A DNA stretch of 64,000 bases, from assembly GCA_964016885.1 (NCBI GenBank), contig OZ024743.1, positions 243,970,001 through 244,034,000 on the forward strand, in the 5' to 3' direction. Below, one piece after another: positions 1-57,059 of the stretch. The translations under genes were made by a program, and so were the position numbers. The notes beneath the pieces were generated by a model, which saw only the letters and a list, made by a program, of their open reading frames with translations, was not told where the DNA came from and made no database searches. The DNA comes from Eledone cirrhosa. Taxonomy: Eukaryota. Every line of letters starts with the position of its first letter. The stretch's first letter is position 1.

Positions 1-1829
1 GCAGTCCTGAGGGCGGTTGGCTTTGGGCCCGTCTTCAGAGGCTGGATCGCTGCCATGCACAACGACATCTGCTCTGTGGTGAGAGTGAACGGTCACCTTT
101 CGGAACCGTTCAACATCATGCGCTCGGTCCGCCAAGGATGTCCCCTCTCGTCCCTATTGTACGTATTGACTCTCGAGCCATTACTGCACAAACTGGAGAC
201 GTTGAGGGGCGTCCCGCGCGAACTAGGATGCGGAAGATCCGTGCCAGCATATGCGGACGATGTTACCGTAGTGGTGTCGAAGGCCAAACACATCGAGGCG
301 ATCGGCACTACACTAAGAGAATACGAAGCGGTGACAGGAGCAATGATCAACCAGGAAAAGTCAGTGGGCCTGCAGCTCGGCACCTGGAGAGGCAGGTCCA
401 TGCCGTCCAACAGCGTCGTCGGACGCTGGACGGACGGACCGGTTAAATTGCTAGGGGTCTGGTTCGGTCCGGACCTCCAGACGGACAAAAACTGGGACGA
501 GGTGACAAGCAGGGTGGCTTCTCTCACCCAGAAATGGGCGGAGAGGAAGCTATCCCTGAAAGGTTGAGCGGAGGTGGCTAACGCGTACATCGCGTCTGTC
601 ATCTGCTACCTCCTGACCGTCGTACCTTGTCCTAAGCCCCGCCTGACTGCACTAGAGCGTTTGCTCTTTCGCTTTTTGTGGAAGGGACGCGCTCCGATGG
701 TCAGGCGGTCCATCTTCTGTCAACACCCGCTACGTGGAGGGCTGGGAATGCTCAGGCTATGACATCTCCACCTCTTCCTCGACGGTGATCAGGTGTGGTC
801 GCCGTTTGCTAGACACGTATTTCCCCAGCTCGTTTCCTTGACGGAGCTGCAGTCCTGGGTCAAGCGAAGACCGAGAGGGAGCGCCTGGAGACTGGAATGT
901 CTTCAGGCGCTCACAGCCCTCGACCAATCGGGCAATGTGATCGGTGGAAACTCCACCTCGGCGTTCTATAGAGGATTAGTGGAGGGGAAGAGCGACGACG
1001 TACTTGGGGATACTCTAGGCGTCGACGAAAATCAACTAGCCAATCTCTTGGGAAGAACTTTCGGGCCGGGACCTATGGACAACTTCCAGAAATCTCTGGC
1101 CTGGCAGTGCTACCGAGGAGCCTTGCCAGTTCGGGATAAACTCTACAGGCATGGAGGTGCCGTCAGCCGAGCATGTCCGAGATGCGCGCAGGGCGACGAA
1201 ACCGTCCTGCACGCACTCGTCCAGTGTCCGAAAATTGCTGACTTGTGGGTTTATGTCGAACACCTGCTGTCGCGTGTAGGACGGATCCGGCTATCATCTG
1301 AGTCCATCGTGAGGATTTCCCTGCCCTCTTTCTTTAGCCGGGACGGGCAGGCAGTTTTTATCTGTCTGGTGGCCATGGCGAAAGAGATAGTATGGTGGAC
1401 ACGTTTGAAAGGGCTGAAGATGAGCACTTACCTCTTCGGTGATGCCCTGATTGACTTTTTCAAATTTCATTTGAAAAGGAAAATCAGAGTAGCGAGGGAA
1501 GTGCTCTCTTCCCAGCATTTTGTTGAAAGATGGGTGAGAAAAGCAAGAATGGCCTGAGTGAATGGGCCTACTCTGAGTACGTATCTGTAAATTAAAGGTG
1601 GAAAACTGGGAGAGGGCACTTGCCTTGGTGGTCAGGGTCACTGTGGCCTTTTACTGGGCTTTCTCCACAAATGTCCCTCCGAAGCCTGGGGAATTTTTCA
1701 TTGTTATTTTTTTGTTACATCCTCTGTTTTTGTTTTTTACACGCAGAAATGCCCATTTGTACCGTCCTGTATTGTCCTGCACTGTCCTTAATGTCTACTT
1801 TATGTAAACCCTTGTGGTTAATAAAGAAA

Positions 1830-1887
<58 letters not shown>
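1..1887 (+). mobile_element. Tx1/L1-clade LINE, 3' part of ORF2 (RT + C-terminal Cys domain), 3' UTR and (ATT)n tail; disrupted
   Basis: ORFs 55-567, 574-762 and 793-1557 carry SVRQGCPLS, YADD and CPRC...ETVLHALVQC. Premature stop at 565 and a deletion near 760. Ends cccttgtggttaataaagaaatc then (ATT)n at 1832-1887. Clearly homologous to the 8566-11526 ORF. Confidence 0.93.
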
Positions 1888-3457: not shown

Positions 3458-3680
3458 TAATGGTTTCTGATTTAGGCACAAGGCCAGCAATTTGGGGGAA
3501 GGGGAAAGTTGATTAAATCGACCCCAGTGCGTGACTGGTACTTTATTTTATCGACCCCGTAAGGATGAAAGGAAAAGCTAACCTCGGCGGGATTTGAACT
3601 TAGCTCATAAAGGGCCGTAACTCTATGCTGCAAACCATGGCATCTGACCCCCTACCGAGACTGCCAATCCACCGCCTATC
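3458..3680 (-). mobile_element. tRNA-derived SINE, family A (Meta/MESC-like central domain)
   Basis: Reverse complement has A box tggcagtctcgg, B box gttcaaatccc and the core ctttcatccttacggggtcgataaaataaagtaccag. About nine copies in the window. Confidence 0.85.
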
Positions 3681-8123: not shown

Positions 8124-8243
8124 ATAATAATAATTGTTTCTACTTTTGACACAAGGCCAGCAAATACCTAGTGCATTACTGGTACTTTATTTTATCGACC
8201 CCGTAAGGATGGAAGGCAAAGCTCACCTCGACGGGACTTGAAC

Positions 8244-8244
<1 letters not shown>
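8124..8244 (-). mobile_element. SINE family A, 5'-truncated, abutting the Tx1 (ATT)n tail
   Basis: Core and B box match the other family A copies. Has its own short (ATT) tail at about 8124-8133. Confidence 0.8.
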
Positions 8245-8288
<44 letters not shown>

Positions 8289-8565
8289 TTTCATTTATTA
8301 GCCACAAGGGCCGACATGTAGGGGACAATACAAAGACAGGGACAGTGGGGGTTTACAATAAGGTCGAGTAAAAGTGCACAATGGGAAGACTCATTTTACA
8401 ATGAAAATATAAAAATATAAAATAAACTATGCATAAATATAACAAAATAAATTCCCCGATAGGGGGTGGACGACCCTGGGGTGATTCGGGTACCCCACCA
8501 ATCCTGAACCACCCTGGCGCTTCTAGGGCACCCAGGAGAGCACCCCTCTCCTCAAGTTAGCCAGC

Positions 8566-11500
8566 CTATAGGCACATGGTCAGAGTAGGCCCATTCACAC
8601 GAGCCATTCTTGCCACATTCACCCACCTTTTAGCAAATGTACTGGGGGGCAGCACTTCTCTCTCCACCCTCACCCTCCTTTCCAGGTGAAACTTGAAGAA
8701 GTTGATGAGGGATTGGCCGAAGAGAAAAGTGTCTGTCTTTAGTCCTTTCAACCTGGTCCACCATATAATCTCTTTCGCAACTGCCACCAGACAGAGGAAA
8801 ATGTCCTGCTCTTCCTGACCTAAGGAAGGTGGTGGCTCGATCTTCACTATGGACTCAGCCGATAGCCGGATTCGTTCCACACGCGACAGTAGCTGTTCGA
8901 CATAACTCCACAAGTCAGTAATGCACGGACATTGGACAAGTGCGTGCAGAACGGTTTCGTCGTTCTGTGCGCATCTTGGGCAGGTCCGTCTGACAGCACT
9001 TCCGTGCCTGTAGAGTTTATCCCGAACCGGCAGTGCCCCCCGGTAGCACTGCCAAGCGAGGGATTTCTGGAAATTGTCCATCGTCCCCGGCTCAAAAGTC
9101 CTCCGGTACAGACTGGTCAGTTCGACTTCGTCGAGGCCCAAAGCTTCTCCGAGTGCGTCATCGCACTTGCCCACCACTAATCCTCTATAGAACTCGAGAA
9201 TGGAAGTTCCACTGATCGCATTGCCCGCTTGGTAGAGGGCAGTGAGTGCCTGGCAACATTCCAGGTGCCAGTCACCCAGTCTCGGTCTCTTCTTGACCCA
9301 GGACTGCAGCTCAGTCAAAGAAATGAGCTGCGGAAAGGCCCGTCTGATAAACGGCGACCACACCTGTTCACCATTGAGGCAGAATATCTGGAGATGTCGC
9401 AGCCTCAACGCATGTCTGCGCATCATTAGCCACGGCATGCCCAGCCCTCCGTGTAGAGGGTGCTGGCAGCAGATGGACCGCCTCACCAACGGAACTTGTC
9501 CCCTCCACAAGAATTTGAAGAGGAGCCGTTCCAACTTGACGAGGCGCGGACGGGGGCAAGGCACGACGGTTAGGCGGTAGTAGATGACGGACGCGATGTA
9601 CGCATTCGCCACCTCCGCGCGACCTTTCAGTGATAGCTTCCTCCCAGCCCATTTTTGGGTGAGACTGGCTACTCTGCTCGTTACCTCGTCCCAATTCTTT
9701 TCCACCTGGAGGTCTGGTCCGAACCAAACCCCAAGCAACTTTACTGGTCCGTCCGTCCAGCGCCCCACGACGCTGTTGGACGGCATGGGCTTGCCTCTCC
9801 AGGTTCCGAGCTGCAAGCCCACCGACTTTTCCGGGTTAAGTTTGGCTCCTGTCAACCTTTCATATTCCTTCAATAAGGTGCCGACCACCTCGATTTCTGA
9901 GGTGTTCGACACCATCACGGTGATGTCGTCCGCATAAGCCGACACCGCCTTTCCGCGTCCCGGTTCGAGCGGGATGCCCTGCAACAGCTCCAGCAGTAAA
10001 GGCTCGAGAGTCAATACGTACAGAAGGGAAGAGAGAGGGCACCCTTGACGGACCGATCGGGAGATCTGAAACGGTTCCGAGAGGTGGCCATTAATTTTGA
10101 CCACCGAGCAGGTGCCGCTGTGCATTGCAACGATCCAGCTTCTAAAGACAGGGCCGAAGCCAGCTGCTTTGAGGACAAACTCCAGATACCGATGGTCGAC
10201 CCTATCGAATGCTTTCGATTGATCTAAATTGATCAGTGCCCCACCGAAGCCAGGTTTACACCCTACCCTCTCTATGATGTATCGCATGAGGTGGAGATTG
10301 TCGTGTATGGACCTGGCTGGGATTGCGCAGGTTTGCGCCTTCCCAACCAAATCCTCGACGACAAGCGCCAATCTCTTTGCTAACACCTTGGCCAAAATCT
10401 TAAACTCTGTGTTGAACAGAGTTATGGGCCTGAAGTTGTCTAATGTATCCCTCTTGTTCTCGTCTTTCCTTATCAGCGTCACCACTCCCCTGCTCACAGA
10501 ACTGGGAATACTCCCATTCTGCTGCCAGTTACAGTAGAGTGCTTCGAGGAGTTCGGAGAACAAGTCTGGCATATTTACGTAAAGCTTGTAGGGCAGGCCA
10601 TCCAAACCGTGTGACTTGCGCCTCATGCAGCCGACAAGAGCGTCCTGAATTTCGGCTGAAGTAATCGGCCTTTCGCAGCGCTCAGCGTCGACCGTCGAGA
10701 TGCGCGGCAAGCCGTCAATGTAGGGTCTGAAATCCACTACTCTCTCTGACTCGCCACTCTCCCTGAACAACCGAGCAAAGTGCTGGCGAAAGGCCTCACA
10801 CATCCGCTTGGAATCGCTTATCTCGTGTCCGTCTCGGTCCGCCAAAGACCGAATTGTGGTTTTATTACCACGCTGCGCCTCCGCCACGCGGGCCCATCGA
10901 ACAGCTTTAGTTCCCTCGTTTCTCAGCGCACGCGCCTTAGCTCTGACAATGCAACCTTCGTGTTTGGCATTGAAGAAATGGTCTAATGCCATTCTAGCCG
11001 CTAGCACGTCAGTTGCGATGCCACTACAAATAGCCTCGTCTAACTTATCTACCAGCTCCCCCTCCTTTCTATTTTTCTCTAACGCTAGTTCTTTGCTGAA
11101 CTCTATCGAAGTTACTCTAATATCTCTTTTGAGAGCCCCCCACCATCTGTTGTTGATGATCGCCCCTATCAACTTTTGCTTAACTAACTTGTTGACTCGG
11201 TCCCTGTAAGCCTTACGTGCCGGAAATGACATGTTCAGCTTCCAGTAACCCGGTCCTAACCTACGCGTTTTATTTAGGTCGACCGTACAGATCACAAATT
11301 TGTGATCTGAATAGGCGACCGTTTTAAAAAGTGGACAGCCCACACTATTTCTATCTATTTTCCTAATGAAGATTCTGTCTATATACGATCTAGATGACCC
11401 CATTCGGTTGGTCCATGTCCATACTGGCACATTGGGGAAATCTAGTCGATACCTGTCAGACAGTTGGAACTGGCTGAGTAGGTGCTTGAGGCTTTTGCAC

Positions 11501-11981
11501 CCCCCGCTCCTATCGGCTACTCCCACACAATCCCAGCGTGCGTCTAAGATGCCATTCCAGTCCCCCGCTAACAGTAAAGGGCGAGACGTACCCAGAAAGG
11601 TCTCCAGGCACCTAAAGAAGTCAGGTCGTCCGGCCCCTGTAGGGCGTAGACGGCCAGCAGTCTAAAGGCACCACCTTCGCTACTGCTCACATCCAAGACC
11701 ACCAACTTACCGTCCGGGTCCCGGAAGATCGACCTTACCTCAAGATCCAGTCCTTTCCTAAACAGCACTGCCACCCCACCCCCCATTCCCGGCCTGCTAA
11801 CAGATGCGAAGATCTGATAGTCGTCCATAATGGGGGCTAGTTCGCGCGTGTCGGAAATTCTGGTCTCGCTTACGGCAATCACATCCATTTCCAGCGACCG
11901 GAGGTCGTTGAGCAGGCGACCCTGCTTCCAGGGTGACCCCAGGCCGCGAACATTTAAAATTCCTACTCTTAATATGGCCAT
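8566..11981 (-). CDS. Tx1 ORF2: AP endonuclease + reverse transcriptase + C-terminal Cys domain; one frameshift near 11640
   Basis: Motifs LNVRGL, SET, GDWN, IDRIF, SDH (APE); FRPITL, LDQSKAFDRV, VRQGCPLS, YADD (RT); CPRC...H...C. ORFs 11568-11981 and 8566-11526 join if one base is restored at YA(P)TG. Confidence 0.92.
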
Positions 11982-11990
11982 ATTGGTAAG

Positions 11991-13970
11991 CTAAGAGAGA
12001 GAGAGGGAAGGTTTACTTACCTCCCGGGTCTTGTGAAGGTCGGGTGGTTCGACCTCCATGGTTGGTGGGGTTTCTTTTGGGAACCCCTTTAAAAGTCTTG
12101 ATGTGGGTTTCACATTCGGGTTTCCCACGTCTTGAGGAAAGCTCTCTCGAATTTCTTTGAAGGAATTGAGTGACGTTTGGACCAGAAACAAATCTTCTGG
12201 CACGCAAAATGTGCTCATTTCAAAAATCTCCCCCTCTGTTTGAATGTCCTCGCTTCGCGCTAAGAGGGCCATCAGTTTATCGTTGGCCCTTCTGACAAGC
12301 ACGAAATTTTAAACATTTTGTTGGTGTGGTTTTATTTGTTTTCGTTTTGGTGAAGGTGGTGGCGATGGTTTTGGTGGTGTTGTTTCGGGTATGTCTATGT
12401 TTGTTGTAGGTGTGGTGTCTGCAATTTCAGGTATTTGTGTGTTTATTTGTACTTGTGTTTGTTTAGGTTGTTTGCGTTTCGGGGATTGTGGAGGTGGTGT
12501 CGATGTTGCTGATGGAGCTGATGTTATTGGGGAAGTGTTTGCGTTAGTGGTGTCTGTATTTTTTGTTGTGTGTGTTTTTGTGTTTTGTTGGGGCTTTTTT
12601 TTGTGAGTTTTTTTGCACTTTTGGGTTTTCCTTCATCTTCGCTGCTGGAAGACAAAGGGTCTGTGTCTGTGAGTGTCTCTGTGTCTGTGTGTGCGTTTAT
12701 TTTTTTTTTGTCTATGTGTATACTTGGGGGGGGGGGGGGGAGTGGGAGAGCTTTCCTCGTTTTCTCCTTGGATTGGTTTTGGTGTTGGTGGTGATCCGGC
12801 TGCTTTTGATGTTGGTGTCCGTGTTTTTGTTGATGTTTTTGGTGGTGGTGGTGGTGCAGCTTTCCGTGCTGAGACTGGCGTTGGCAACAAAGGAGGTTTG
12901 CGACCCCCTGCATTTTTGCGCTGAGGGCAGAAGGCTTGAAGATGCGTTGCTTCCCCGCAAACGAAGCAGCGTGGCCTTCTTCCGTCAATCATTAGTTGGA
13001 TTGTTGTCCCGTCCTGCAGGCGGGAAAAATCTGGGATGTTATTCATATCCTCCGGTTTCATTTGGAGAAGAATCTCCAAATCCATTCCGCACCAGTCCTC
13101 TCTCTCTGTCCTTTTGATGTCCAGGAGGGTGGTGTCTGTCCCCTCCTCGATTACGCATCCCAGCAGCCACCATATGTTCATTCCTGGTGGGATGCTGGGA
13201 ATGCGTACCTTCACTGTCCTTTTACCCATATAGGACGGATGCATGATAATGCGTTCCGTTCTGCAGGGGGTCACCGAGTGCTTAATAGCGAGGGCCTCGG
13301 TTTTTAACAGTACCGAGATGGTACCGAACTGTTTGCCTCTTGATTTGTACTCTATGTTACTTCCGATGTACTCCAAAGCAGCCTCTACCTCTGCATGGCT
13401 CGCAAGTTCCACTTTTCGTGTCTGCACCGAAATACATCGAAAGAGCACCGTCCTCCTTTGCATGGCCGCTATTGCCTCGTCCGGGATGGTCAGGTTTGCC
13501 CAGGACTTCTCCCGTTTAATTAGCCTCCACGCTTTGGCCAACTGTTCGTCTTTATCGCTAATATCAATATTCAATAAGTGCTTTGTTTTTGCTGCTGCTG
13601 CAGCAAATGTGGTGTTTCTGATACTCTTATTGTTGTTGTTGTCATTCTTGCTGTTGCCAGCGCCATCCTTGTTTACATTGAAGCTGTCGGTGTTATTGTC
13701 GTTATTGCTCTGAGTTGTTGTTGTTGTTGTTGTTGTTGTGGTGGTGGTGGTGGTGGTGGTGGTGGTGGCGGTGGTGGTGATGTCGTTTTCAGATGATACT
13801 GCTGCTATGGCAGAAGGTTGTGATGGTAGCTTTTTAGTTTTGCCTTCACATTCAGTAGAGTGGATGACAGGCATGACTGTAGCCGTCGTAGTCGTGGTGA
13901 AATCTGCAGTGGCTGCCTTTAAACTTTTGACCTGAACGTTGTTTACCGTTTCAAAATCGAAAATTTCCAT
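11991..13970 (-). CDS. Tx1 ORF1 (gag-like nucleic-acid-binding protein), frameshifted in its C-terminal low-complexity half
   Basis: 445-aa ORF 12633-13970 with CFVCGEATHLQAFC (CX2CX4HX4C), poly-Thr/Asn tracts and Pro/Lys-rich segments. The last frame ends at 11991, 9 nt before the ORF2 ATG. Confidence 0.82.
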
Positions 13971-14197
13971 AATTTTCTTTTGGTGGGGAAGCGATTTTTT
14001 TCGAAGTTTAAAAAAAATAAATCTGAATATTCGGGCTTAAAGCCCGAATATTGAGAGGTATCCCTCTCTTTAAATCAAGATGTGTACCTTAAGTTTCGTT
14101 AATGACAAGAAAGTACAAAAAAAAAGACACTTTAAAACAGCTTAAAGCTACGAACCTTTTTCCCCGCAGACTTGTCTGTCTTCACACATGTGCGGCC

Positions 14198-14267
<70 letters not shown>

Positions 14268-15844
14268 TTTTTTTTTTCTTGGTCTTGTGGGATATCAGAA
14301 CTGAATTTGTATTTTTCCTGCCACCGTTGTTTACCCTGCTCAATGATCTGGGCATCTGCATTTGAGAGTCAATAGTTTAGGGAGTTCTGTCTGTTGGTTA
14401 GATTCATTTGTCTGTCAGAACGCTTTCTCTGGCTTTTCGAGGAAAAGCATTCATTGCCCCAGGTGTCTCCAGTAGGGACACTATGAGTACGTATGTTCGC
14501 AGATGACATGGTGCGTGCACAGATGCTATAAGGAAGAGAAGCGTGAGAGTAAAAATAAAAGAAAAAAGCTGGTGAGTATGCAAATAATAATAATAATAAT
14601 AATAATAATATGTAAAAGCATCCGGCTTGAGTCCAAAAAAAATTCGGATCCATAATATATTGTTATATCGCTCAAATATTCATTTTTGTATTATACATTT
14701 TATATTCAAAAGAGAAAATGGTTATAAATGGAAGAAAACCCCCTCTGTCTACACTATATAGAACAGCCAAATAACAGCAATTTCACCAACACCAGAAACT
14801 AGATACACCACCTACCCCATCACCCCTCTGTGTACACTAAACACATCAGCCAGATAACGGCAATTTCACCACCACCACCACCACCAATCTCAGCATAATA
14901 ATAATAATTACTATTATTATTGTCTCAAGTTTTAACAAAATGTTTAATTCCAATATTAAGAAAATATGTCAACACATATACGCGACTAACCCCATAGATT
15001 CACCGATCAAACAAAAATACAGTTCATTCAACAAAACTCAGTAACGACAACGCCATCACTACAGTCACCGCCACCGCTGCCCATCCATCATTACTACCAC
15101 TATCCCATCACCGCCGCCACCACTCATTCATTGCTACCACCGCTATCCCCCCATTACCTTCTGTTAACTTACGAAAGGGGAAGATGGCGGTATCACTAGA
15201 CAATATTAATAAACAAGATTAATATTTAATTTTGGATCAGGAATGTTAGAGTCGAAAAGGAGGAAAATGGCAAAATGACTAAATAACTAAAGATAATTTC
15301 ACCACCAACACCACCACCACTACCACGATGAAAACTATGGTCAAATCGACTCAACCGCTATTTCTACTCCAACTTCAACACCATCACTACAGTAATACGA
15401 GCGCATCACCACCACCACTGCCTCATTATCGCTACCGCCGCTATTCTCTCCCACTACCTCCTTCTAGTTGCTGCTAGCACAGCACCGCCACCACCACCAC
15501 CACCACCACTGCCTCATTATCACTACCGCTGCTATTCTCTCCCGCTACCCCCCGCTACCCCCTGCTACATCGTAGAATCCCCACTAAAAGAGGAAGGCAT
15601 CAAAATATATAAATAGACTGAATTGATGACCCGGTCAAAATCAAAAAAACAAAAATCAAAATCAAAACAGCACAGCAAAAACGAAAAACGTAAAGAAAAT
15701 AAAAGATGAAGAGAAAAACAAACAGACGGACAGAGAAGGGAAGGGAAAAACTAAGTCAGACATTCAAACACTACATTACAATGAAACTTATGCTTATTCA
15801 TTTTTGGGTTTGTTTTTGTCTGTTTGTTTGTTTGTTTATTTATG

Positions 15845-18800
15845 TTCGTCTACAGCGTGATAATGCCACACAAAAATCACGTGGAGTGACGGAACCACCG
15901 GAGACGATGAATTCACCGGTGGTTATGTAACCATACATTCGCCAATCGTCGATAAGAGTGTTTAAATGTCGAACCTAGACAGTTCGAATAACGGTGAAAT
16001 GGAGACTAGAATGTCATGTGACAGACTCTCACCCAACAGGTGCTCCCTGGCTCAGCAGCAGGGACCTGGCTGTCAACCAAATACTGCTGGTGTCGGAGGA
16101 AGAAGAAGAAGGAAAGGGACCAGAACCAACTGGACGAAAGAATTGAATAGAACTGTTATGCAATGTTACCTGAAGAGTAACCCCAAGGAGAAAGGCTATA
16201 GGAAACGGATGCATAACATCTGGAACGAGATTGGTCTATTTAAATTAGATGAACAAAAATTGGCCGGGCAGGCTCGGGTAATAAGAACTAATGGGTGGAT
16301 AAGCGAGCTGGAACTGGAGGAACTGAGCAGAGGGATTAGCTTGGAGATGGAGAGTGGAGTATGCCAGGCAAACGAGCCAGTGGGAAATGAAGGTGAAGAG
16401 GTCGAGAGAACGGAGGAACCACCCGAAGCAGACAATGATCTGAATGCTGAGATAAATAATACCTGGAACAGAGATACGGCCACTGAGGAGATGAATGCTG
16501 ATGGGCTAGGACAAGATTTGGTTGATATCCTAAACTTAGTGGTAGATGAATTGAACAATGATAGTGGGAGACCTATGAACCTAAGATTTGTAGACAGGAA
16601 AAAGTTAAAAGAAACAACAGCTAAGGTAAACAAAGTCATCCCATACCTTGAGGCGAGGAGCCTTCACCAGTGCAACAATATCCTCAAAGCAACAACAAAT
16701 ACGGCAAGGAAACTACTTGGTATAAAAGCGAGAGGAAACAACAGACAAGAAAGAGCAGAGCCTTGGTGGAAGAAACGAGTGGTCAAATCAGGGAAATGAG
16801 AAATGACATTGGAAAGCTTGAGTCCCTACTGAATGGGACACTAAAAAACATAGACACTAAAAATAGACTGGAAATAAAGTACAAAACTAGGAGGAAAAAG
16901 CTAAATATTATCATAGAGGAACTGAAGCAACGCATTGAAGCAAAGAGTGCAAAAATCAGGCGATACGAGAACAGAGTCAGCCAGTACAGACAGAACCGCA
17001 TGTTCGACAACAACCAGAAGATGCTGTTTGGACAGCTTGAAGGGAAAGAAAGAGGCAACGACTTGATCCCTGAGGCGGAACAAACTAAAACATTCTGGAG
17101 AGGAATATGGGAGCAGGATGTTAAACATAATGACCAGGCAGTGTGGATTGAGACAGTACAGAAGGAGATTAGTGAACAGGCACACCAACAAACTGATTTG
17201 AGTATCACAGTTGAAACTCTTAAGGGGCAGGCCAAAAAACTAACCAACTGGAAATCACCAGGCCCAGATGGTGTGCAGGGGTATTGGATTAAAAATATAA
17301 CATCCCTCCACCCGAAACTGACAACCATGTTCAATGACTGCTTGATGTCATGTGAGGTACCAGAGGGTTTGACAAAAGGTACCACAGTTCTGATAATGAA
17401 AGACCGAATCAAGGGTAATGATGTTACCAACTATAGACCTATCACATGTCTGTCCGTAATGTGGAAACTGTTGACAAGCATTATGTCTGAGGAAATCTAC
17501 CATCACCTCCACACAAACAACTTGTTGCCGGACGAACAGAAAGGATGCCGAAAGAAGTCACGTGGTACAAAGGACCAGCTACTTATTGATAAGGTGGTAA
17601 TGAGGAATTGCAAGAGGAGACACACTGGTCTTGCCATGGGATGGATAGACTACAAAAAGGCATTTGACATGGTGCCTCATTCTTGGATCACCAAAAGCCT
17701 GGAGATCTTCAAGGTGGCAGATAACATCAGACAGTTGTTGGGCAAAAGTATGAAGTCCTGGGAAACAGAGTTAACATCAACTGGAGAATCCTTGGGAAGC
17801 GTGAAGATCAAGAGAGGTATCTTCCAGGGATATAGTCTATCCCCTCTGTTGTTTGTCCTTGCCCTGATGCCCCTGATCAGTGTACTGCGAAAAGTGAGAG
17901 CAGGATACAGGTTGGGAAAGGGAGGGCTTACCATCAATCACCTCCTCTTCATGGACGATCTTAAGCTCTTCGGGAAGAGTGAGAGGGAGTTGGATGTGCT
18001 TGTTGACACTGTCCGTATTTTCAGCAATGATATATGTATGCAATTTGGTATTAGTAAGTGTGGAGTCATTGTGATGAGGAGGGGTAAGTTGAGCAGAAGT
18101 AACGGAATCCAGGTACCAACAGGTGAGATGATAAAGGAAATTGACTCTGAAGAAGGATACAAGTATTTGGGCGTTCTGGAGGCTGATGATATCAAGAACA
18201 AAAAAAATGAAGGAATTGATAAGAACTGAATACATTCGGAAAGTAAGGAGCGTATTAAAGTCACATCTGAACAGTAGGAATGCCATAAGTGCAGTAAATT
18301 CCCGAGCTGTGTCTATTATTAGGTACAGTGCGGGAATTCTGAGATGGAATGTTGCTGAACAAAAAGAAATGGATAGGAAGACTAGGAAGCTATTGACTAT
18401 CTACAACATGTTCCACAAGATGAGTGATGTCGATAGACTCTACTTAAGGAGATCTGAAGGTGGAAGAGGTCTTATCAGCATAGAGGACTGTGTTCAGATG
18501 GAGAAAAACAACCTACACAAATACGTGACTGATAGTAAGGAGCCAATGCTCAGAACTGTACTGAAGGAGAGGACCATAGACCAGGGGATCTCCAAGGAGG
18601 AAATAACAGCAAGGAGAAAGAGCAGCCTTCAGGAAAAATCCCTTCATAGTACCTTCTTTGAGAAAACTGAATTCAGAGATCCACAGACATGGAACTGGTT
18701 GAAAAGAGGAGACCTTCAAAAGGCTACAGAAGGAATGTTAATGGCTGCGCAAGAGCAGGCCCTCAAAACGAAGTGGTTGAAACACCATATTTACAAGGAG

Positions 18801-19473
18801 GAGGCTAGCCTACTGTGCAGGATCTGTGGAGAGAGAGAGAGGAGACTGTGGCTCACATTGTATCCGAGTGTAAACACCTAGCCCAGACTCACTATAACGG
18901 CTGGAGACTTGATGTGATGGGCAGGGTGATCCACTGGCACCTATGCAAAGTAAACAATTTACCACATTCTGAGAAGTGGTATGAGCATAAGCCAGAGGCG
19001 GTGATAAAAAACGATCAGGTGAAGGTGCTGTGGGATTTTAGGATACAGACGGACAAGAAACTGGAACACAATAGACCTGACCTGGTGGTTGGGGGCAAAG
19101 AAAAAAGATCGTGCCTGATTGTGGATGTGGCCTTCCCATTCGACACGAGAGTGCAAGAGAAGGAGAGGGAGAAAATTAACCGATACCAGGACTTAAAGTG
19201 GGAGGTAAAAAGGATTTGGAACTGCCATGAAGTCAAAGTGATCCCGATTGTCATAGGCGCACTAGGGACTATCTCAAAAAGTTTCCAGGGATGGTTAAAG
19301 AAAATTGGCCCCTTCACGCTTTTTGGAACGCTTCAAAAGGCATGCTTGCTGGGAACAGCAAGAACCCTCCGATACGTCCTGAATATCTGAGTCTGCAGGT
19401 AGTGGCTTGATATTCATTTCAACAAACTTTCCAGTTAACTAACATCAACGACTGAGACTCAAAGAGTAATAAC

Positions 19474-19515
<42 letters not shown>
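15845..19515 (+). mobile_element. R4/Dong-like non-LTR retrotransposon (single ORF, RT + CCHC + restriction-like endonuclease) with (TAA)n tail; three frameshifts
   Basis: ORFs 15966-16799, 16670-18229, 18141-18881 and 18815-19390. Motifs: YRPITCL, WIDYKKAFD, LFMDDLKL, CRICG..ETVAHIVSEC, RPDLVV..IVDVAFPFD..EKINRY, LQKACLLGTA. Tail at 19467-19515. 5' boundary approximate. Confidence 0.9.
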
Positions 19516-19517
<2 letters not shown>

Positions 19518-20130
19518 TTTCTTTATTGCCCACTAGGGCCTACATACAAGGGACAATACAAAAAGACAGAGACAGCGGATGTTTAATGACTTCTTTATTT
19601 ACCACACCGAGTTGACAGGATGATACAATGTAGGTTTTTGTGTGTAAAAAAGACATTTAAAAACCAAACAAAATAAATTCCCCAAAAGACAGAGACCTCC
19701 GAGAGTCACTTGTGGAGCAAACTCACAAAAGCCAACCTGGCCGCTAGGACAAGTGGCCTTCTCACAGTTGTTCTCCAATTGACTTGCACGCACTCAGAGC
19801 AGACCTATTTACTAGGGCTGTGCTCACCATTCTCATCCATTTCTCAACAATCTTGTTGGAAGGCAGCATTTCTCTCACCACCCTGATTTTTCTCTTTAAG
19901 TGAAACATGAAAAAGTCAATCAGGGCTTCGTCCAAGAGGAAAGTGCTTGTATTCAACTCTTCTTTCGCCTTGGCTACCAGGCAGATAAAAACTCCCTGTC
20001 CTTCCCAACTAAAGGAAAGCAGCGGGCGAACCTCACGATGGATTCATCTGATAGCTGAGTCTGTCCTACATACGACAGGTGTTCCAGATAAGCCCACAAG
20101 TCACCAATATTCGGACACTAGACGAAGCAT
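19516..20130 (-). mobile_element. 5'-truncated Tx1 copy
   Basis: Translates TFLLDEALIDFFMFHLKRKIRVVRE. 3' end ...gggcaataaagaaatc then (ATT)n. Confidence 0.85.
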
Positions 20131-20221
20131 ATAAATATCTACGTGTACTACAAAGCCATAAAGGAGGAGAAAGGAGGAGAACATAGGAGCTTATACAGAC
20201 TTAAAACACGAAATCTTGAAA

Positions 20222-20405
20222 TGCACAAGCCAACAATTTTGGGATGATTACATCGATCCCAACACGTGACTGGTACTATATTTTATTGAAATCGGAAGGA
20301 TGAAAAGCAAAGTTGATTTCGGCAGGATTTGAACTCAGAACGTAAACGGCCGTGACTAATTACTGCAAAGCATTTTGATCGGCGTTCTAATGATTCTGCC
20401 AATCC
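20222..20405 (-). mobile_element. SINE family A, diverged
   Basis: Core ctggtactatattttattga...ggatgaaaagcaaagttga, B box and A box remnants. Confidence 0.7.
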
Positions 20406-20425
20406 AACTCACTGATGATGATGGT

Positions 20426-21040
20426 GATTTCTTTATTAACCATAGTTTACATAAAGATCGAGGACGGTACAGGACGTCACAGTGTAGATTTACATGAAAA
20501 TGTGTAGACAAAGGGAAATAACGAAAAAAATGAAGCAAGGAAAAAATATACAACAGGGGCAAGATTTCCGGGGGTTATTCGTGGAAAACCCCACAAAAGC
20601 CATGGTCACACTTGTCTTCCTCTTCAGATGCATACACAGAGCAGTCACTTTCACTTGGAGCAAGCCCATCTCACTCATCTAGCTTTCAACAAATTTAAAA
20701 GAGGGCAGCACCCCCTTCTTCGCTTTCAATTTCCCTTTAAAGTGAAATTTGAAAAAGCATATGAAGGTTTGACCAAAGAGGAAAGTGTCTGTCTTCAACC
20801 CTTTTAATCTCGTCAACTAAACTACCTCTTTCGCCATGGCCACCAGACAGAAAACAATTACTTTCCTTCTTTATAGCCGGATCTGTCCTACACTTGATAG
20901 CAGCTGTTCGGCAAACTCCATATGTCAGCAATGTTTAGGCACTGAGCAAGTGTGTGCAGGAAAGTTTCGATGTCCTTCTCGCATTTCGGGCAGGCCCGGC
21001 TGACGGCACTTATACGTCTGTAGTATTTATCCCGAAGCGC
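20426..21040 (-). mobile_element. 5'-truncated, degraded Tx1 copy with (ATC)n-like tail
   Basis: Translates RDKYYR..AVSRACPKCEKDIETFLHTLAQC. 3' end ggttaataaagaaatc. Confidence 0.8.
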
Positions 21041-21055
21041 AATTAAGATCTATAT

Positions 21056-21682: not shown

Positions 21683-21892
21683 GAAAAAGTATGACCCCGA
21701 CGGCAGAGCTCAAGCCGTTTCAACGGCTATTTCTGGACGGCTATTTCTATGACTGTCCAGAAATAGCCGTCGAAACGGCTTGAGCTCTGCCGTCGGGGTC
21801 ATACTTTTTCTTATTACCCACTCTACTACCCTAAGTATTGAGTACTCTGGTGCGTTATGGTCCATCTGGTTCCTTACCACATTTCCTTCGTT
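21683..21892 (+). mobile_element. Fold-back solo PLE-type LTR, family X
   Basis: 56-bp inverted arms at 21683-21738 and 21755-21810, plus an 82-bp unpaired extension, inside (TA)n. Contains the HHR 3' half GAAAcggc..gccgTCggggtc. Homologues at 47356 and 60185. Confidence 0.7.
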
Positions 21893-22261: not shown

Positions 22262-23190
22262 ACTAGTCTGTATACAATGATAATATTATGCTGCAACATT
22301 AATAAAACGCTTATAGCCTACAGCAGACCCAAAAGTGTCGCCACTATAAAAGTATTGCCCGGGCGGACCGCCCTCTCGCCCCCTCTAGCTACGTTACTGG
22401 TAGTTTGAATATATATTCAATATTTCGGGCTGCTATTTCTAGTAGTGACAGGTTGTGTGACCACACAAAGAGCCGTTGGTGTCTCAGTAGGCTCAGTGAC
22501 TGCTTTCTCTATTTTATTGTCTCGGTGACAACTTACTACTATAACATTCATCAAAGTTTCTAATCATAATACATAGTCCGTCGTTTGTTCTCTTGTATTC
22601 TATTAAAATCTACTATATTCTATTATATTCATAACTGCCCTCCGTACCCGTATTGTATGGGATGGAAGGTTTGCATGTGGAAAGTCTATTGATCTTACAA
22701 GTATGTTTTACAATGGCAGCTTCCGGATTATATTTGGGAATACCTTTCGTCTTCTATATTGAAACCATAGCAAACATCCGGGTTCTCTGATACTGCATTC
22801 ACCTAGCGGATGATTAAATCGACATCAAATGACGTAGTCTACTTTACCACACTTCCGACATTTACATCTCGCTGCTTTTAATCATTTATTCTCAGCCATC
22901 CCTCTTTCTTTTCTTTCCATTCTATTTTTGCTTCTTTAAGTACTTAAGCGAGGTCACACACATACACATCCGTACACAACATACGCACATACACACATAC
23001 ACACACACATGCACGCACACAATATATATATATATATATATATATATAGCTTTTATATTATGTCCAACATAACAACCACTTATCCCAGCCCTTTTCTAAA
23101 TGAAATTTGTACTGCTTTATCCTTTGTTCTGTAAACTCGTTTGTTGTAGCTTGGTGACCAATATTAATATGCATTACCATTATTATTATT

Positions 23191-23580
23191 CAGAAACTTT
23201 CATCTTCGGCCAAGCCCTCAAAAACTTCTTTAAGTTCCGCCTAGATATGAAGGGAAAGTGGAGTGGAATGTGCTTCCCAGGGGAGCCAAATCAATTTCCT
23301 AAAAAGTAACACTCCATTTTAGCAAGTGGGGATGTCTTTAAAGGGTAGCTCTAAAAAACATATAGTGGAATGGCTGATGCAGCGGGTGTCGCTGTCTGTT
23401 CTCCACCACAATGTTTTCACTATCTTATTCACGGGGCGCAGATGAGATATATCAACAACAACAAATGTGTAGAGCTTGCCCTTTCCTTTCTTTCTTCCTT
23501 TTTGTTTTCATTATTTAATCTTCTCCCTTCCCCTTTTTTTTGTTTTCTCTTCCTGTTTATTATTTTAATACTTAAAAAAA
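23191..23580 (+). mobile_element. Short degraded Tx1 3' fragment preceded by (ATT)4
   Basis: ETFIFGQALKNFFKFRL matches Tx1 DTFLFGQSLINFFKFHL. Its downstream part recurs at about 24830-24950. Confidence 0.6.
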
Positions 23581-23723
23581 AAAGAGACAAAGCTTATGGT
23601 GTCGATAAAATATAAAATAAAGTATCAGTAACGCACTTGGTTCGATTTAATCAACCCCCACCAACCCCCCAAAACTGTTGGTCTTGTGCCTAAATCAGAA
23701 ATCATTATTGTATACTTCTGTGT

Positions 23724-23913
23724 GGATTGGGCGGTGGATTGGCAGTATCGGTAGAGGGTCGGACGCCATGCTTTCTAGCATAGTTACGTCCGTTTACAGT
23801 CTGAGTTCAAATCCCGCCGAGGTTAACTTTGCCTTTCATCCTTACGGGGTCGATAAAATAAAGTACCAGTAATGTACTGGGTAATTGCTGGCCTTGTGCC
23901 TAAAGTAGAAACA
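23724..23913 (+). mobile_element. SINE family A with 20-bp TSD, inserted in the tail of another family A fragment (23592-23703)
   Basis: TSD attattgtatacttctgtgt at 23704-23723 and 23914-23933. A and B boxes present. Confidence 0.9.
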
Positions 23914-25235
23914 ATTATTGTATACTTCTGTGTACTAATAAATCATTAACAAAATGAAAGTTTTCCTATATTAACAAATACAATAATGATAATTGCAAAG
24001 ACCAGATGTAGATATTCATAATTCCTTTTATTCAGAATCTACCGAAATACATATTCCTATGGCGTTCTTGAGTACGCAATGCAGTCATCACGCATCCACC
24101 AATATGACTTTATTAGAGAGCATCTTAAGTAATAAGATTGTTATGTAACATTCCTATTTCAATATAGGCTAGAGATAAGGGGGCGGACGATGTTTCTTCT
24201 TCCGTAGTACAAAGGGCACTTTGGAGGAACCCCATTTCGGCTGCTTGTATTCATGATCATATACTTTCAGTCATTACCCAAGATTCATGACTAAAGATAT
24301 GGGTTGGCACGAATACTGAATTGGAGATACCGAGTTTGCCTTTTACACATACTCCACTTCTTCTGGTGACTGAATGCTGAAGCTAATGCATTGATGTATT
24401 AGATCCTGCAATTCTTTGATGTGCGTGTCGGTGATCACAGTATGGCAAAGTGGTTAAGAAGTTCGCTTCACAATCATGTCGTCTCACATTCGATTCCAAT
24501 ATGTGGTATCAAGGGCGAATAACTTTGCTGAGTCGATGCATGCTTTGCGAATACAATTGGATTGACAGGAACTGTGTGGAAACCTGTCGAATGGACTATG
24601 TAATTCAAAGAGCCAACTTTATCACATATTGTGTCACGTGAAATTCTTCCTGTGAAATTTGATAAGGGTACACATATATGTGGAATATTCAACTACATAT
24701 ACGTTAGTTTAATGACTAGGACGTTCAGTTGATTGAATAACTGAATACTCATCGTCGAAACTGTTGTAGCATCCATCACTTAGTTGATCATTGGGACAAG
24801 GGATCACGCCAGAGGAAGAAGCCCCGTAAGGTGGAATGGCTGATGCTAGGGGCATCACTAGTTGTTCCCCGCGGCAAAGCTTTAGCTATCCTGTTCGCAG
24901 GGTGGAGCTGAGATATACTGTCTAGCAAAAGTGTAGAGTTTCCCCCTCCCATCTTTGATTCTCTCTTTTTTTCTTTTTTTCAGATTTCTTTTCTTTTTAA
25001 ATCAAGATACAGTTTTCTTAAGCAAAAATGGCATTAAAATTTAAAGTAGAAATTAGCCCAAATTAACCGCCCACCCCCAAAAATATATAAATAAACGAGA
25101 AAAAATGGCAAAGCATGTATGATAAAGGAATTTATTTGCTTTGCAGCCACAAGGATTTGGGTCACATCCTACTTTGTGACACTTTGGACAAGTGTCTTCT
25201 AGTATATTCTCGGGTTGACCAATGTCGTGTGAGTG

Positions 25236-25335: not shown

Positions 25336-25629
25336 TAGATAGATAGATAGATAGATATATATGAATGAGTCAGAATCCCGATGGCTAGAACTAGCTGTTG
25401 AAACAAGAACTCAGCCGTAGCGTAATCCATTATTTAATCGTGATTCTGCTTTCCAGGAAAGTTGCAAGTTGGGTGAGAGTGGCGAGTGGAATGGAAAGAA
25501 CCTCCGTCGGTTTCGACGATGAATGTTCCAGATGTTTGATTATTGGAAGACTCAGCTCATTAAATTAACCTGCAAGTGGCTGAATAATCCACAGAGACGT
25601 GTGTCCTTACCATAATTCTCTACTGACTA

Positions 25630-25835
25630 TAGAACATACAACCCAGTTCACCCTTATCAATTCCACATATACCACAAAATCTGCAAATCTCAAGGAGGTC
25701 TAAAAAGACATTTCAAAGTTCATCAAGATACACAGGCAGTCCAAATTGCACCAAAACTAATATGTAATATATGTGGACGGCTTTTAAAACGTTTGTCTGG
25801 TTTAAAAAGCCACATAAGATCTCATGCCATACTTA
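25630..25835 (+). pseudogene. Two C2H2 zinc-finger remnants, probably the C-terminus of an RTE LINE
   Basis: KICKSQGGLKRHFKVH...LICNICGRLLKRLSGLKSHIRSH, with the first finger degenerate. Similar to the finger at 45700-45779. Confidence 0.55.
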
Positions 25836-27221
25836 GGCGATTTCATCAGTTGTTGATTGCAGAATTAGTTATATAAGATAACAGGATTATGGCGAACACA
25901 AACAGAGAATAGAAAATAGAGGAAAGATTAGATTCGGGGATGGCCTGCCAATTCGGTATTATTGTTACGGTAAACCATTCCCGAAAGTCACACAGGCATC
26001 AATGTTAAACTGGAATGGTAGATGTGATGGTGAGGGTGGACGTTGTGAGGTGGTGACATAAATTCTACTGTCCTTAGAAAATGCCATTCATTAATCACAA
26101 CCAAGGATTCCATTGCTACAGAATTCTAGGGGTACTAAACTCTGTCTTAGTAGACATTGATCGAAAACCAGTGTAGCGTGACGGCGAAGAATTAAAGGGT
26201 TAAATCGCTGTATAGGCGTACAAAGTTATATGAATTGTATAAAATGTTAAAAAAAGTTATAAACAGTTATAAAAATTATAAAAGTTACACAAATAATAAG
26301 ATTAACAAAATTTATAAAACTTATTAAGATTACAAAAACTTATAAAAATTATAGAAATTGGTTTGAGTAATACGTTAAATAAATTAAGAAAATTGAATTA
26401 GAAAGAATAAAATAAAAGAAGATAAATTGTGAAGAAATATAGATATTAAAATGGTGTACAGTTACAAAGGTGGTTAATTATAATCTAATGCCATAGACGC
26501 TCGAAAGTAAATTATTGAATGATTAAGAAGTAATAAAACTATTTCACGCATATATTGGTTTGCATTGAGAACGAAAATGTGGTGTGGTGCATCCTCGATT
26601 GGCATGACAGTCCACTTCATCCCCGTCAAAAGAAAATAGCTTACTAGTGACGGAGTAAATTCAAATAATGAAGGGAGGGAAAGTTAATTAACTAATTTAT
26701 TCATTCCAAGCACTCAAAGTATAAAACCAAAGTTTGTTTGACCTGCGCATTATTTAGAGGTCAGTCGATGGCTAAACGTATACCAGACAATGCTCACAAT
26801 ACCAAGCAAAATGATATGATGGTAGATAACACATTACATATTCTTATCTTTCTCCGTGGTGTGGTAAATTAATTCTGCAATCAACACTTGAAGAAATCGC
26901 CTAAGTCTTGCATCATGATTGGATGATGAAACTTGGCCATTGAAATATGTATAGTGTTTCCGAGGTAATAACATTTTAAAGAAAATTTCAGACCGGCCTT
27001 CCGTTGTTTTGAATACATATTTAACTCATAAAGAAGAGAGATGGTTTTAAATATACATCCTCTGTTATTTAAAACCGTCTCTCATCTTTATAATATCGAC
27101 ACACCGGTTGATACCTTATCAATAACATTTTAAGGAATACAAATCGTAGAGTGCTTTACGTCTGTTTTCAGCAAAAGTCGGTGGTTTATCTGATCAACCT
27201 AACTTTCCTATGAATTGTATA

Positions 27222-27337
27222 ATATAATTGTTTCTACTTTTGGAACAAGGCCAGCAATTACCCAGTGGTACTTTATTTTATCGACCCCGTAAGGATGAAA
27301 GGCAAAGTTAACCTCGGCGGGACTTGAACTCAGACCG
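27222..27337 (-). mobile_element. SINE family A, 5'-truncated
   Basis: Core and B box match the other copies. Confidence 0.8.
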
Positions 27338-27368
27338 TATGAATAATATAATATAATTGAATAATATA

Positions 27369-32007: not shown

Positions 32008-32841
32008 CAGGGGTCGGCAACCTTTTGGAGAGAGAGGGCCAAACAGCTATGCAGTGTCATGGAGGAGGGCCATGTTATTAAATATGTAAATAAATTTTCT
32101 GGAGGTTTAAAGCAAAACAAGAAATTTAATATAATTTTATTTTAACAAGGCCCCTTATTTTACTGCAGGAATAACAAAAAAGAAAAAAAAGAAAAAAAAA
32201 AAACAACTACAAATACATTCAACAAAAAGAAAAAGCAAATTCCTTGCTACAAACGAAATACAGTTAGAAATGGTAAATGATTTAATGAGACACTTGTATC
32301 TGCTTATTGTGCGATAACTTCTCCACATCAGGTGAAATATTTATCGATGACAGAAGCAAAACATCATCCAGGTGGTCGTCACGCAACCTTGTTCTTAAAT
32401 GACTTTTACTATATTTCATTTTGGAAAAAAGTTGTTCACAAGCATATGTACTTCCAAATAATGATATCATCAGTTTCGCATTAGTCAAGATGTTTTTATA
32501 TTTTCCGCTTGGCAATATATATTTCTTGTAGAAGTCAGCAGTGGATTCGAACTGAAATTTCGATTTCAAAGATTCATCGCACTGTAAGTCAATTAACTCC
32601 AACTGATATTCTTCTGCCACTTGCTCCACATCTGTTTCGTAAGGAGTACCAAATAACTTAAATAGAGTTCCATATTGCCGGAAGTCAGCAAAACGAGAGG
32701 AAAACTCGCTTCTCAAATCCTTAATAGAGCTCACAAAGATGTCTGCTATTGTATCTCTCTTGTGATTTTGGAGACTTGGGAAATGAGAGTAGTTTCCTTT
32801 TAAAAGTTGTGATTCCCACAGTCGAATTTTTGTCTCAAGAA
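32008..32841 (-). mobile_element. hAT (Charlie/SPIN-like) transposon 3' portion with transposase C-terminus
   Basis: TIR caggggtcggcaacct. ORF 32282-32734 has SLFGSTYACEQLFSKMKYSKSHLRTRL (hAT dimerisation region). tctagga is duplicated at both sides. Confidence 0.88.
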
Positions 32842-33054
32842 TCTAGGAGAAGGCAACTCAGGAAACTGGGATAACTCCGACATAAAACCTGCGGCTCAGT
32901 AGTTACCGATGATGTTGATCTTTTCTTCTTTTCGGATTATAGCTACTGTCGCTTACAGAGTGGGATTGGCTTAGTGCACACTTTTGTCCCATTTTTAAAA
33001 ACATTTTCACGCACAGGCGTTGGACGATAACATTAATTGATAATTATTAATAAT

Positions 33055-33235
33055 TGTTTCTACTTTTGGCACAAGGCCAGAAATTAACCAGTGTATTACT
33101 GGTACTTTATTTTATCGACCCCGTAAGGATGAAAGTTAACCTCGGCGGGATTTGAACTCAGAATGGCAAGCGCCGTAACTCTATGCGTCAAAGCATGGCA
33201 TCCGACCCTCTACCGATACTGCCAATTCATCGCCC
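33055..33235 (-). mobile_element. Full-length SINE family A with 15-bp TSD
   Basis: ataattattaataat at 33040-33054 and 33236-33250. Confidence 0.9.
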
Positions 33236-45102: not shown

Positions 45103-45303
45103 TTCCAGGCCTGAGTACAGCAAATTTCTTCCAGTGAGAGGAAGAATCGATCCCAGTACTAGACTGGTAATTTTTTTATCGACCTTGAAGGGATGAAAGG
45201 CAAAGTTGACCTCGGCGGGATTTGAACTGAGAGAGCAGAGAACCGGAACAAATACCATAAAGCATTCTATCTGATGTTCTAACGACTCTGTTAATTCGCC
45301 GCT
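45103..45303 (-). mobile_element. SINE family A (diverged) whose 3' end runs into the satellite
   Basis: ggatgaaaggcaaagttgacctcggcgggatttgaact core/B box. Confidence 0.8.
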
Positions 45304-56814: not shown

Positions 56815-57031
56815 AAGGGCGGCGGATTGGCAGTATCGGTAGAGGGTCGGACACCATGCTTTGCAGCATAGAGTTACGGCCCTTTATGATCTGAGTTCAA
56901 ATCCCGCCGAGGTTAACTTTGCTTTTCATCCTTACTGGGTTGATAAAATAAAGTACCAGTCACGCACTGGGGTCGATTTAATCGACTTTCCCCTCCCCCC
57001 AAATTGCTGGTCTTGTGTCTATATAAGAAAC
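56815..57031 (+). mobile_element. Full-length SINE family A with 18-bp TSD
   Basis: cattatattagtcgatct at 56797-56814 and 57032-57049. A box tggcagtatcgg, B box gagttcaaatccc. Confidence 0.92.
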
Positions 57032-57059
57032 CATTATATTAGTCGATCTGATCTGTTAT

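Follow-up and report, generated by a model that had tools for sequence, protein, structure and literature searches.

The 64-kb window analysed here (the whole stretch of 64,000 nucleotides) is repeat-rich animal DNA, likely from an octopod cephalopod as judged from its letters. It harbours a family of short interspersed elements (SINEs) with a tRNA-like head and several copies of a Tx1-like long interspersed element (LINE). The nearest named relative of the long LINE open reading frame (ORF) is a protein of Argonauta hians (67% identity). The 3′ ends of the SINE and of the LINE probably share a real but short likeness, and this study considers Tx1 as the partner that mobilises the SINE. Besides the window, four public sequencing runs and published papers were used. 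One of the runs, X1, possibly derives from the same sample as the window.

The SINE family is represented by nine copies (A to I), three of which are 5′-truncated and four of which have target site duplications (TSDs). The copies and their parts are as follows:

3459..3679, minus strand: SINE copy A, full length, long-tail subfamily, no clear TSD
8132..8244, minus strand: SINE copy B, 5′-truncated, within the (ATT)n tail of Tx1 copy T2
20235..20410, minus strand: SINE copy C, older variant directly behind Tx1 copy T3, terminal motif lost
23592..23706, plus strand: SINE copy D, 5′-truncated, long-tail subfamily, no clear TSD, with copy E inserted at its tail
23682-23703, plus strand: terminal 22 nucleotides (nt) of SINE D
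23704..23723, plus strand: left TSD of SINE E, 20 bp, beginning with ATTAT, the first ATT being the tail of SINE D
23724..23916, plus strand: SINE copy E, full length, short-tail subfamily, with 5 extra bases ahead of the usual 5′ end at 23729
23740..23751, plus strand: A-box-like motif for RNA polymerase III (Pol III) in the tRNA-like head of SINE E (motif scan)
23805..23813, plus strand: Pol III B-box-like motif of SINE E, 65 nt after the start of the A-box (motif scan)
23820..23868, plus strand: UCON3-like central domain of SINE E (by-eye comparison with PMC7245038, supplementary Figure S2)
23889..23901, plus strand: predicted 3-4 bp hairpin with CUUGU loop in SINE E
23892..23913, plus strand: Tx1-like terminal 22 nt of SINE E
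23914..23933, plus strand: right TSD of SINE E
27226..27339, minus strand: SINE copy F, 5′-truncated, TSD of 13 bp exact or 22 bp with 2 mismatches
33052..33235, minus strand: SINE copy G, full length
33236-33250 and 33040-33054: TSD of SINE G, 15 bp
45120..45303, minus strand: SINE copy H, older variant without terminal motif
56817..57035, plus strand: SINE copy I, full length, long-tail subfamily
56797-56814 and 57032-57049: TSD of SINE I, 18 bp

Similarity among the young copies is about 85-96%. They fall into a long-tail (A, D, I) and a short-tail subfamily (B, E, F, G), which differ by a 31-nt indel just 5′ of the terminus. The common terminus followed by ATT is present in seven of the nine copies and missing from the older copies C and H. 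A-box and B-box motifs were found 65-67 nt apart in all four full-length young copies. ARAGORN detected no tRNA gene in the SINE and Rfam gave no match at gathering score; the consensus fold resembles a tRNA only loosely and has a long hairpin at its centre. In SINE E an unusually long hairpin is predicted between the two boxes (23752-23804), and the whole of copy I folds at z −2.7. The long hairpin of the head could derive from an intron-containing tRNA or from an insertion. The family may well be the octopus OK SINE; tRNA-derived octopus SINEs named OK, OR1, and OR2 were reportedly described by Ohshima and Okada in 1994. OR1 and OR2, cited as CORE-SINEs, fit a second SINE family of the window and not the one considered here.

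The preliminary description of this DNA had called the SINE body Meta-like, which proved to be wrong. Three motifs from the window had no match in the MetaSINE supplement (PMC4824008), and the bivalve Meta rows (MetaSINEs carry a 66-bp Meta domain after a tRNA-Thr-like head) look unrelated to the SINE body by eye. Instead, the body matches the UCON3 domain: compared by eye with rows of supplementary Figure S2 of PMC7245038, it agrees with UCON3 at 36 of 49 positions and with the snake SINE SINE2-1_CrH at 38 of 49. By these motifs and matches, the SINE is tRNA-headed and UCON3-bodied. When 227,022 contigs from run X1 were aligned to a 2.1-kb stretch, the depth piled up on the SINE; the SINE motif had no match in either the viral or the metagenome contigs.

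The Tx1-like copies, with their ATT tracts, are the following:

1..1831, plus strand: T1, 3′ part of a Tx1-like LINE (reverse transcriptase (RT), zinc finger, and 3′ untranslated region (UTR)), broken frames
1807-1819, plus strand: predicted terminal hairpin of T1
1832..1885, plus strand: (ATT)18 tail of T1
8287..14197, minus strand: T2, full-length Tx1-like LINE
14198-14266 and 8245-8286: (ATT)23 and (ATT)14 tracts flanking T2
19474..19578, minus strand: T5, Tx1-like terminal fragment with (ATT)14 tail, head-to-tail behind T4
19588..20126, minus strand: T4, Tx1-like 3′ fragment
20426..21043, minus strand: T3, Tx1-like 3′ fragment
23179..23278, plus strand: (ATT)4 followed by T6 (23191-23278), an 88-bp remnant of Tx1 ORF2 without a 3′ end

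ORF1 of T2 has 467 amino acids and a CCHC knuckle (CX2CX4HX4C) at residue 357; a CCHC zinc knuckle in ORF1 is a feature of the Tx1 clade. ORF2 comprises an apurinic endonuclease (APE), RT, and zf-RVT (Pfam domains Exo_endo_phos, RVT_1, and zf-RVT) and is split by a single frameshift in the endonuclease. Its nearest solved relative is human L1 ORF2p (E about 1e-43), and R2 follows at about 1e-18. T1, T3, T4, T5, and the remnant T6 belong to diverged subfamilies: nucleotide identity is 76% between T1 and T2, and amino-acid identity is about 40% for T3 and T4. In a quick RT tree of 52 rows, built without named Tx1 or L1 references, T2 grouped with three close matches including Argonauta (SH-aLRT 100), and five unnamed proteins joined this group at 98, apart from loci next to small nuclear RNA (snRNA) genes. 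Since the tree lacks named references, the LINE is treated as Tx1-like because of its anatomy and targeting. L1-Tx1 families are listed as recently active in Octopus vulgaris (PMC13282606, Table 1).

Among 14 scanned distant relatives of T2 ORF2 from metagenomes (about 25-30% identity), two lie upstream of U2 and one upstream of U1 snRNA (L004:4675-4885, L007:5815-5977, and L022:9202-9356). The position of these 3 of 14 upstream of U2 or U1 is like that of target-specific Tx1 families; the locus next to U1 may be a U1-targeting element or a coincidence.

The preliminary description had aligned SINE positions 23682-23706 with Tx1 positions 1810-1834 and counted 19 of 25 identities without gaps. 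This count is correct; three of the 19 belong to the common ATT, leaving 16 of 22. A second pair proposed there does exist (SINE E ending at 23913 and T2 ending at 8287), but it needs a 1-nt gap, and only 10 of 22 positions agree when no gap is allowed. A profile was built from the last 22 nt of the five Tx1 ends, with the 1-nt insertion of T2 removed; the ATT repeat tail was left out of all profiles. Among 127,950 positions, the seven SINE ends ranked 6, 7, 16, 19, 27, 28, and 117 on the Tx1 profile, with copies A and D (ranks 6 and 7) directly behind the Tx1 ends themselves. All seven outscored each of the 2,767 unlabelled positions that precede ATT, and p was 5e-6 to 1e-3 per SINE copy for the fixed 22-nt profile. 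On the reciprocal SINE profile T1 came first after the SINEs, T5 was 25th, and the other Tx1 ends ranked 147-674. Positions 1-12 and 13-22 of the 22-mer each match by themselves, and no SINE/Tx1 likeness was found at positions 23-60 upstream of the terminus. The result was little changed when any single Tx1 end was left out, and fixed profile lengths of 18-40 nt gave a median p of about 1e-4 to 5e-3.

Since the length of 22 nt had been picked after inspection, the test was redone with the length and a shift of ±3 left free in the null. With all five Tx1 ends this gave p values of 1e-4 to 9e-2 per SINE copy, and with the four unedited ends 6e-4 to 0.27. For the long-tail subfamily p stayed at 1e-4 to 8e-3 across pseudocounts, with or without T2. 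The ATT tail follows all seven motif-bearing SINE ends and four of the five Tx1 ends, and the older SINE copy at 20405 has a tail that scores −8.3 on the Tx1 profile. We are moderately confident that the signal, short and method-dependent as it is, lies above chance. Of 55 Tx1 ORF2 relatives from metagenomes, all of them distant, the sequence following ORF2 was examined in 32, and no match to either profile stood out there as the end of an element (best score on the Tx1 profile 9.1). The terminal motif is thus not a general Tx1 feature.

Directly after the TSD of SINE E, at 23934-23947 (plus strand), a short AATAAATC-ATT stretch looks like a remnant of a Tx1 terminus (8.4 bits, E 0.13 in a 361-bp scan); this likeness may be due to chance.

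A small hairpin with a CUUGU loop is predicted in the same register in the SINE and Tx1 ends. In a 12-row alignment of both, 83% of the cells were paired, compared to 25-57% in slid controls and a level reached by none of 500 shuffles. Pair 11-19 is kept in 12 of 12 sequences, and three of the four pairs have changes on both sides, as counted over 12 related sequences. At the second pair, four Tx1 ends have C-G, and all seven SINEs have either G-C or G-U. RNAalifold returned the same three pairs unprompted; in 7 of the 12 ends the CUUGU loop is part of the minimum-energy fold, and T3 and T5 have a near-equivalent hairpin. Among the differences between SINE and Tx1, several lie at paired positions; the predicted hairpin would account for part of the mismatch. 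The common register of the predicted hairpin is support for a Tx1 partner beyond that given in the preliminary description.

The insertion sites are also alike. The three TSDs reported earlier, which measure 20 bp in E, 15 bp in G, and 18 bp in I, were all recovered as exact repeats, and a fourth was added by SINE F (13 bp exact, 22 bp with two mismatches). ATTAT opens the upstream copy in four of four cases, in two of them after 1-2 shared bases; its background is 0.0021 per position. Five of the seven tracts of at least four ATT units adjoin a Tx1 end. At 19474-21043 (minus strand), T3, SINE C, T4, and T5 form a head-to-tail stack in the same orientation. Three cases had been described in which a SINE directly follows a Tx1 3′ region in the same orientation. 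Two of them hold, at 8244, after the (ATT)14 of T2, and at about 20405, after T3; the SINE of the latter case (copy C) belongs to an older variant and has no terminal motif in its own tail. The case at 23592 does not hold: the only Tx1 piece upstream is the 88-bp remnant T6, which ends 314 bp before SINE D, and the DNA between them has no alignment to Tx1 3′ UTRs and no terminal motif. Under uniform placement, the chance that two of the nine SINEs fall within 50 nt behind a Tx1 end is about 1e-4; target preference alone suffices to explain this adjacency.

In the sequencing runs, where joints were not counted exhaustively, loose ends behind position 23919 pass into (ATT)n; organisms A, B, and C have 2166, 3007, and 306 such contigs, respectively, with an agreement of about 0.4 over 30 letters. 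Head-to-tail joints from SINE to SINE are frequent: the exact joint of 23919 to 23729 was found in 108, 89, and 1 contigs, and no empty-site allele was among the joints listed. Peaks of read ends at 23883, 23886, and 23916 in the restriction-site-associated (RAD) run X8 coincide with AATT sites and are likely a restriction artefact.

What is observed, then, is the likeness of the ends, the tail, the ATTAT start of the TSDs, the Tx1 copies bordered by (ATT)n, and the head-to-tail stacks. With some reservation, we consider it likely that the SINE is mobilised by a Tx1 LINE that targets (ATT)n, and that the ORF2 protein (ORF2p) acts via the hairpin and the terminus. Pol III would transcribe the SINE from its A and B boxes through the (AUU)n tail. 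The Tx1 ORF2p would bind the predicted hairpin and the GAAAnn-AUU end in trans, and its APE endonuclease would nick the AAT strand of a site containing ATTAT. The freed 3′ end of the DNA could then pair with the AUU repeats of the RNA and prime reverse transcription, and a staggered second nick would yield a TSD of 13-22 bp. As every insertion deposits a new ATT tail, SINEs and Tx1s would stack behind one another. The SINE end was likely gained by template switching; the AATAAA poly(A) signal would since have been lost, with hairpin and terminus kept, a loss that is tolerable because a Pol III transcript needs no poly(A) signal. Of the earlier proposal of a Tx1-driven SINE with 3′-end recognition, Tx1 stands as the best-supported partner, and recognition of the end is what we infer.

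Further retroelements of the window come into question as drivers or share the target. One of them is:

15966 to about 19467 (ORFs 15966-19390), plus strand: Dong/R4-like element

We take this element to belong to the Dong/R4 clade from its motifs and its target. It lies tail to tail with T5 (minus strand) in a common (AAT)n/(ATT)n tract (14198-14609 and 19474-19515), and two more tracts of this kind enclose a 315-bp segment at 14267-14582. The same microsatellite is used in opposite orientations by two unrelated LINE clades. A second tRNA-headed SINE family, with a CORE-like body, is found in (AT)n tracts with a different tail (51097-51307 and 58369-58579, both minus strand, 38309-38443, and 38544-38677); it scores about −11 on the Tx1 profile, which is no match. 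Two 5′-truncated RTE-like ends (45666-45838 and 46604-46776, both plus strand) are 97.7% identical, encode a C2H2 finger, and have (ATGT)n at their ends; another remnant that codes for C2H2 is present at 25616-25873. A C2H2 finger was also reported for RTE-2_OV (PMC9115989). RTE-like RT remnants are present at 57071-57924 (minus strand) and 58697-58903 (plus strand). The former is 62% identical to P0121, from a cluster including a sea urchin (Diadema) protein, and since this identity is high for such distant hosts, horizontal transfer of the RTE-like remnant is possible. A Pfam scan of 150 of 171 further frames in the window revealed no remnant of CR1 or L2.

Several points weigh against the mechanism proposed above. 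Only 22 nt are in common, with 60-73% identity to the best Tx1 end, while published SINE/LINE pairs have about 80-100 nt in common (PMC3747384). In the window scan, a covariance model (CM) and a hidden Markov model (HMM) of the five Tx1 ends listed none of the seven SINE ends at E ≤ 10; in a 361-bp scan the end of SINE D scored 8 bits (E 0.16). Both models probably miss the SINE ends because they weight the invariant AATAAA, which all five Tx1 ends keep and the SINE has lost. For T3-T5, unanchored local alignment did not exceed the random level, and for T1 and T2 it was marginal (19 and 7 of 1000). The short-tail subfamily was borderline (p 1.5e-3 to 0.27) once length and shift were left free, and the SINE copies, belonging to one family, count as one or two tests and not as seven. 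The hairpin was proposed post hoc from the alignment, and its stability does not exceed that of shuffles (z −1.5 to +1.5); the shuffle control for pairing ignores relatedness, and a 3-bp stem occurs by chance at 1.6-5% of positions. Finally, the comparison of LINE ends is limited to the window, which contains no CR1 or L2 end, and other UCON3 SINEs have RTE or CR1 tails (PMC7245038).

This last point bears on an alternative that we hold to be unlikely, namely that the true partner is a LINE outside the window (CR1, L2, or another RTE) that also ends in (ATT)n, and that the likeness to Tx1 results from convergence or a past exchange of LINE tails. The CR1 and L2 version stands as no such end lies in the window; a point against it is that CR1 and L2 usually leave short TSDs or none. 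Both complete RTE-like ends of the window fail to match the SINE tail, and the region downstream of the RTE fragment scores −1.6. The Tx1 ends, on the other hand, match the SINE in each half of the 22-mer as well as in the hairpin register. In favour of an unseen LINE is the shortness of the Tx1 match, which CM and HMM both miss. An unseen LINE would agree with the RTE or CR1 tails of hagfish SINEs with a UCON3 domain (PMC7245038) and with the 13 recently active families that CR1 and RTE each have in O. vulgaris (PMC13282606). It would also agree with the TSDs, since RTE-driven elements have TSDs mostly over 13 bp that open with their own tail repeat (PMC6007223). The ATT start of the TSDs, taken earlier as a pointer to Tx1, is therefore no such pointer by itself. 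We regard as quite unlikely a relaxed mobilisation by Tx1 in which only the (AUU)n tail matters, as for the crocodilian SINEU, the 22-nt likeness being a decaying relic or chance. SINEU has a target preference in common with its Tx1 partners and no common 3′ end (PMC4494074), and the marginal thermodynamics of the hairpin and the loss of AATAAA fit this explanation too. A neutral relic would not be expected to keep pairing where SINE and Tx1 differ, as pair 11-19 does throughout, and the end was kept by both SINE subfamilies despite the 31-nt indel just upstream. It is very improbable that the likeness is pure chance and that SINE and Tx1 merely gather in the same ATT/AAT microsatellites, possibly with a Dong-R4 driver. 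The genome is AT-rich, CM, HMM, and local alignment were weak or negative, and the Dong-R4-like element of the window uses the same microsatellite, in line with Dong elements targeting TAA repeats (PMC3812793). Its tail is on the opposite strand, however, and on the SINE profile its end reaches a score of −8.4, so that it was rejected as a partner; moreover, the long-tail subfamily is significant even under the widest null, and tail repeat, TSD start, and hairpin agree independently.

The window contains further elements. A 4.5-kb satellite at 40600-45150, with mixed 15- and 13-bp units and higher-order periods of 73 and 88 bp, directly abuts the truncated tail of SINE H. An element at 52131-56571 and 62188-62375, which we take to be Penelope-like, has RT and GIY-YIG-like frames and terminal segments repeated in both orientations. 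A small MITE- or Helitron-like repeat family with a long internal palindrome lies in (TA)n at 21684-21892, 47357-47454, and 60186-60384, and the C-terminal remnant of a hAT transposase (weak Pfam match) at 32282-32842 (minus strand).

SINEs mobilised by Tx1 are already known: the crocodilian SINEU was concluded to be mobilised in trans by a target-specific Tx1 (Tx1-Mar), as is proposed for the SINE described here; SINEU has a target preference in common with its Tx1 and forms tandem insertions (PMC4494074). SINEU has U1 or U2 heads and poly(A) tails, whereas our SINE has a tRNA-like head and an (ATT)n tail. For SINEU-1 no LINE with the same 3′ end was found (PMC4494074), whereas here the last 22 nt resemble the Tx1 end. 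Common 3′ ends of a SINE and an L1-group LINE are known for maize ZmSINE2/3 with LINE1-1_ZM and Chlamydomonas SINEX-3_CR with L1-1_CR, and the monocot pair has a hairpin with compensatory changes, as predicted here (PMC3472496, PMC3747384). Those pairs come from plants and algae, have poly(A) tails and longer common ends (about 80 nt in the alga, compared to 22 nt here), and involve neither Tx1 nor a microsatellite target. Only three such SINEs (maize, sorghum, and Chlamydomonas) are on record against upwards of 800 LINEs of the L1 clade (PMC3747384, PMC3472496). SINEs with a UCON3 domain have a tRNA head followed by a body of roughly 50 bp, which is 73-78% identical by eye to that of the window SINE. 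They stem from chordates, nematodes, cnidarians, and xenacoelomorphs, with no mollusc or octopus row in supplementary Figure S2, and their named partners are RTE or CR1 and not Tx1 (PMC7245038). APE-type Tx1 elements in microsatellites, as found here, include Kibi in (TC)n, Koshi in (TTC)n, and the crocodilian elements in (TTCC/TTTC)n; the target here is (ATT)n, and TAA repeats were ascribed only to Dong (PMC3812793, PMC4494074). In the literature covered (subscription journals, Repbase, and Dfam were outside its scope), no Tx1/SINE pair with a common 3′ end and no named partner of an octopus SINE was found; this includes the available portions of PMC4758252, PMC4824008, PMC5786205, PMC10294476, PMC8967140, PMC3531059, PMC3812793, PMC9115989, and PMC13282606.

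In O. vulgaris, 11.6% of the genome consists of SINEs, and of 900 SINE families with recent activity 893 are unclassified (PMC13282606); the octopus literature examined names no driver for them. With Tx1 as the partner, the expansion of octopus SINEs would have a mechanism. Tentatively, and with slightly more doubt than confidence, we suggest that the dominant octopus SINE is driven by a Tx1 that recognises a signal of about 25 nt, made up of the CUUGU-loop hairpin, the GAAA terminus, and the AUU repeats. If so, this would be the first Tx1/SINE pair in the literature covered with a common, covarying 3′ structure, and an animal L1-group element with stringent RNA recognition. It would also be the engine of the SINE expansion and of many ATT microsatellites in octopus. 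Such a case bears on the question raised by Ohshima, whether recognition of a specific RNA end was ancestral to the L1 group and was relaxed to poly(A) afterwards (PMC3472496); little evidence for the stringent state comes from animals. With a nearly intact target-specific Tx1 next to it, a 25-nt signal that carries a natural compensatory swap offers a small and direct test system, and the 25-nt end is a possible cis-tag for site-directed RNA-templated insertion. The finding would furthermore place the UCON3 domain in molluscs as well and make Tx1 a further partner of UCON3 SINEs.

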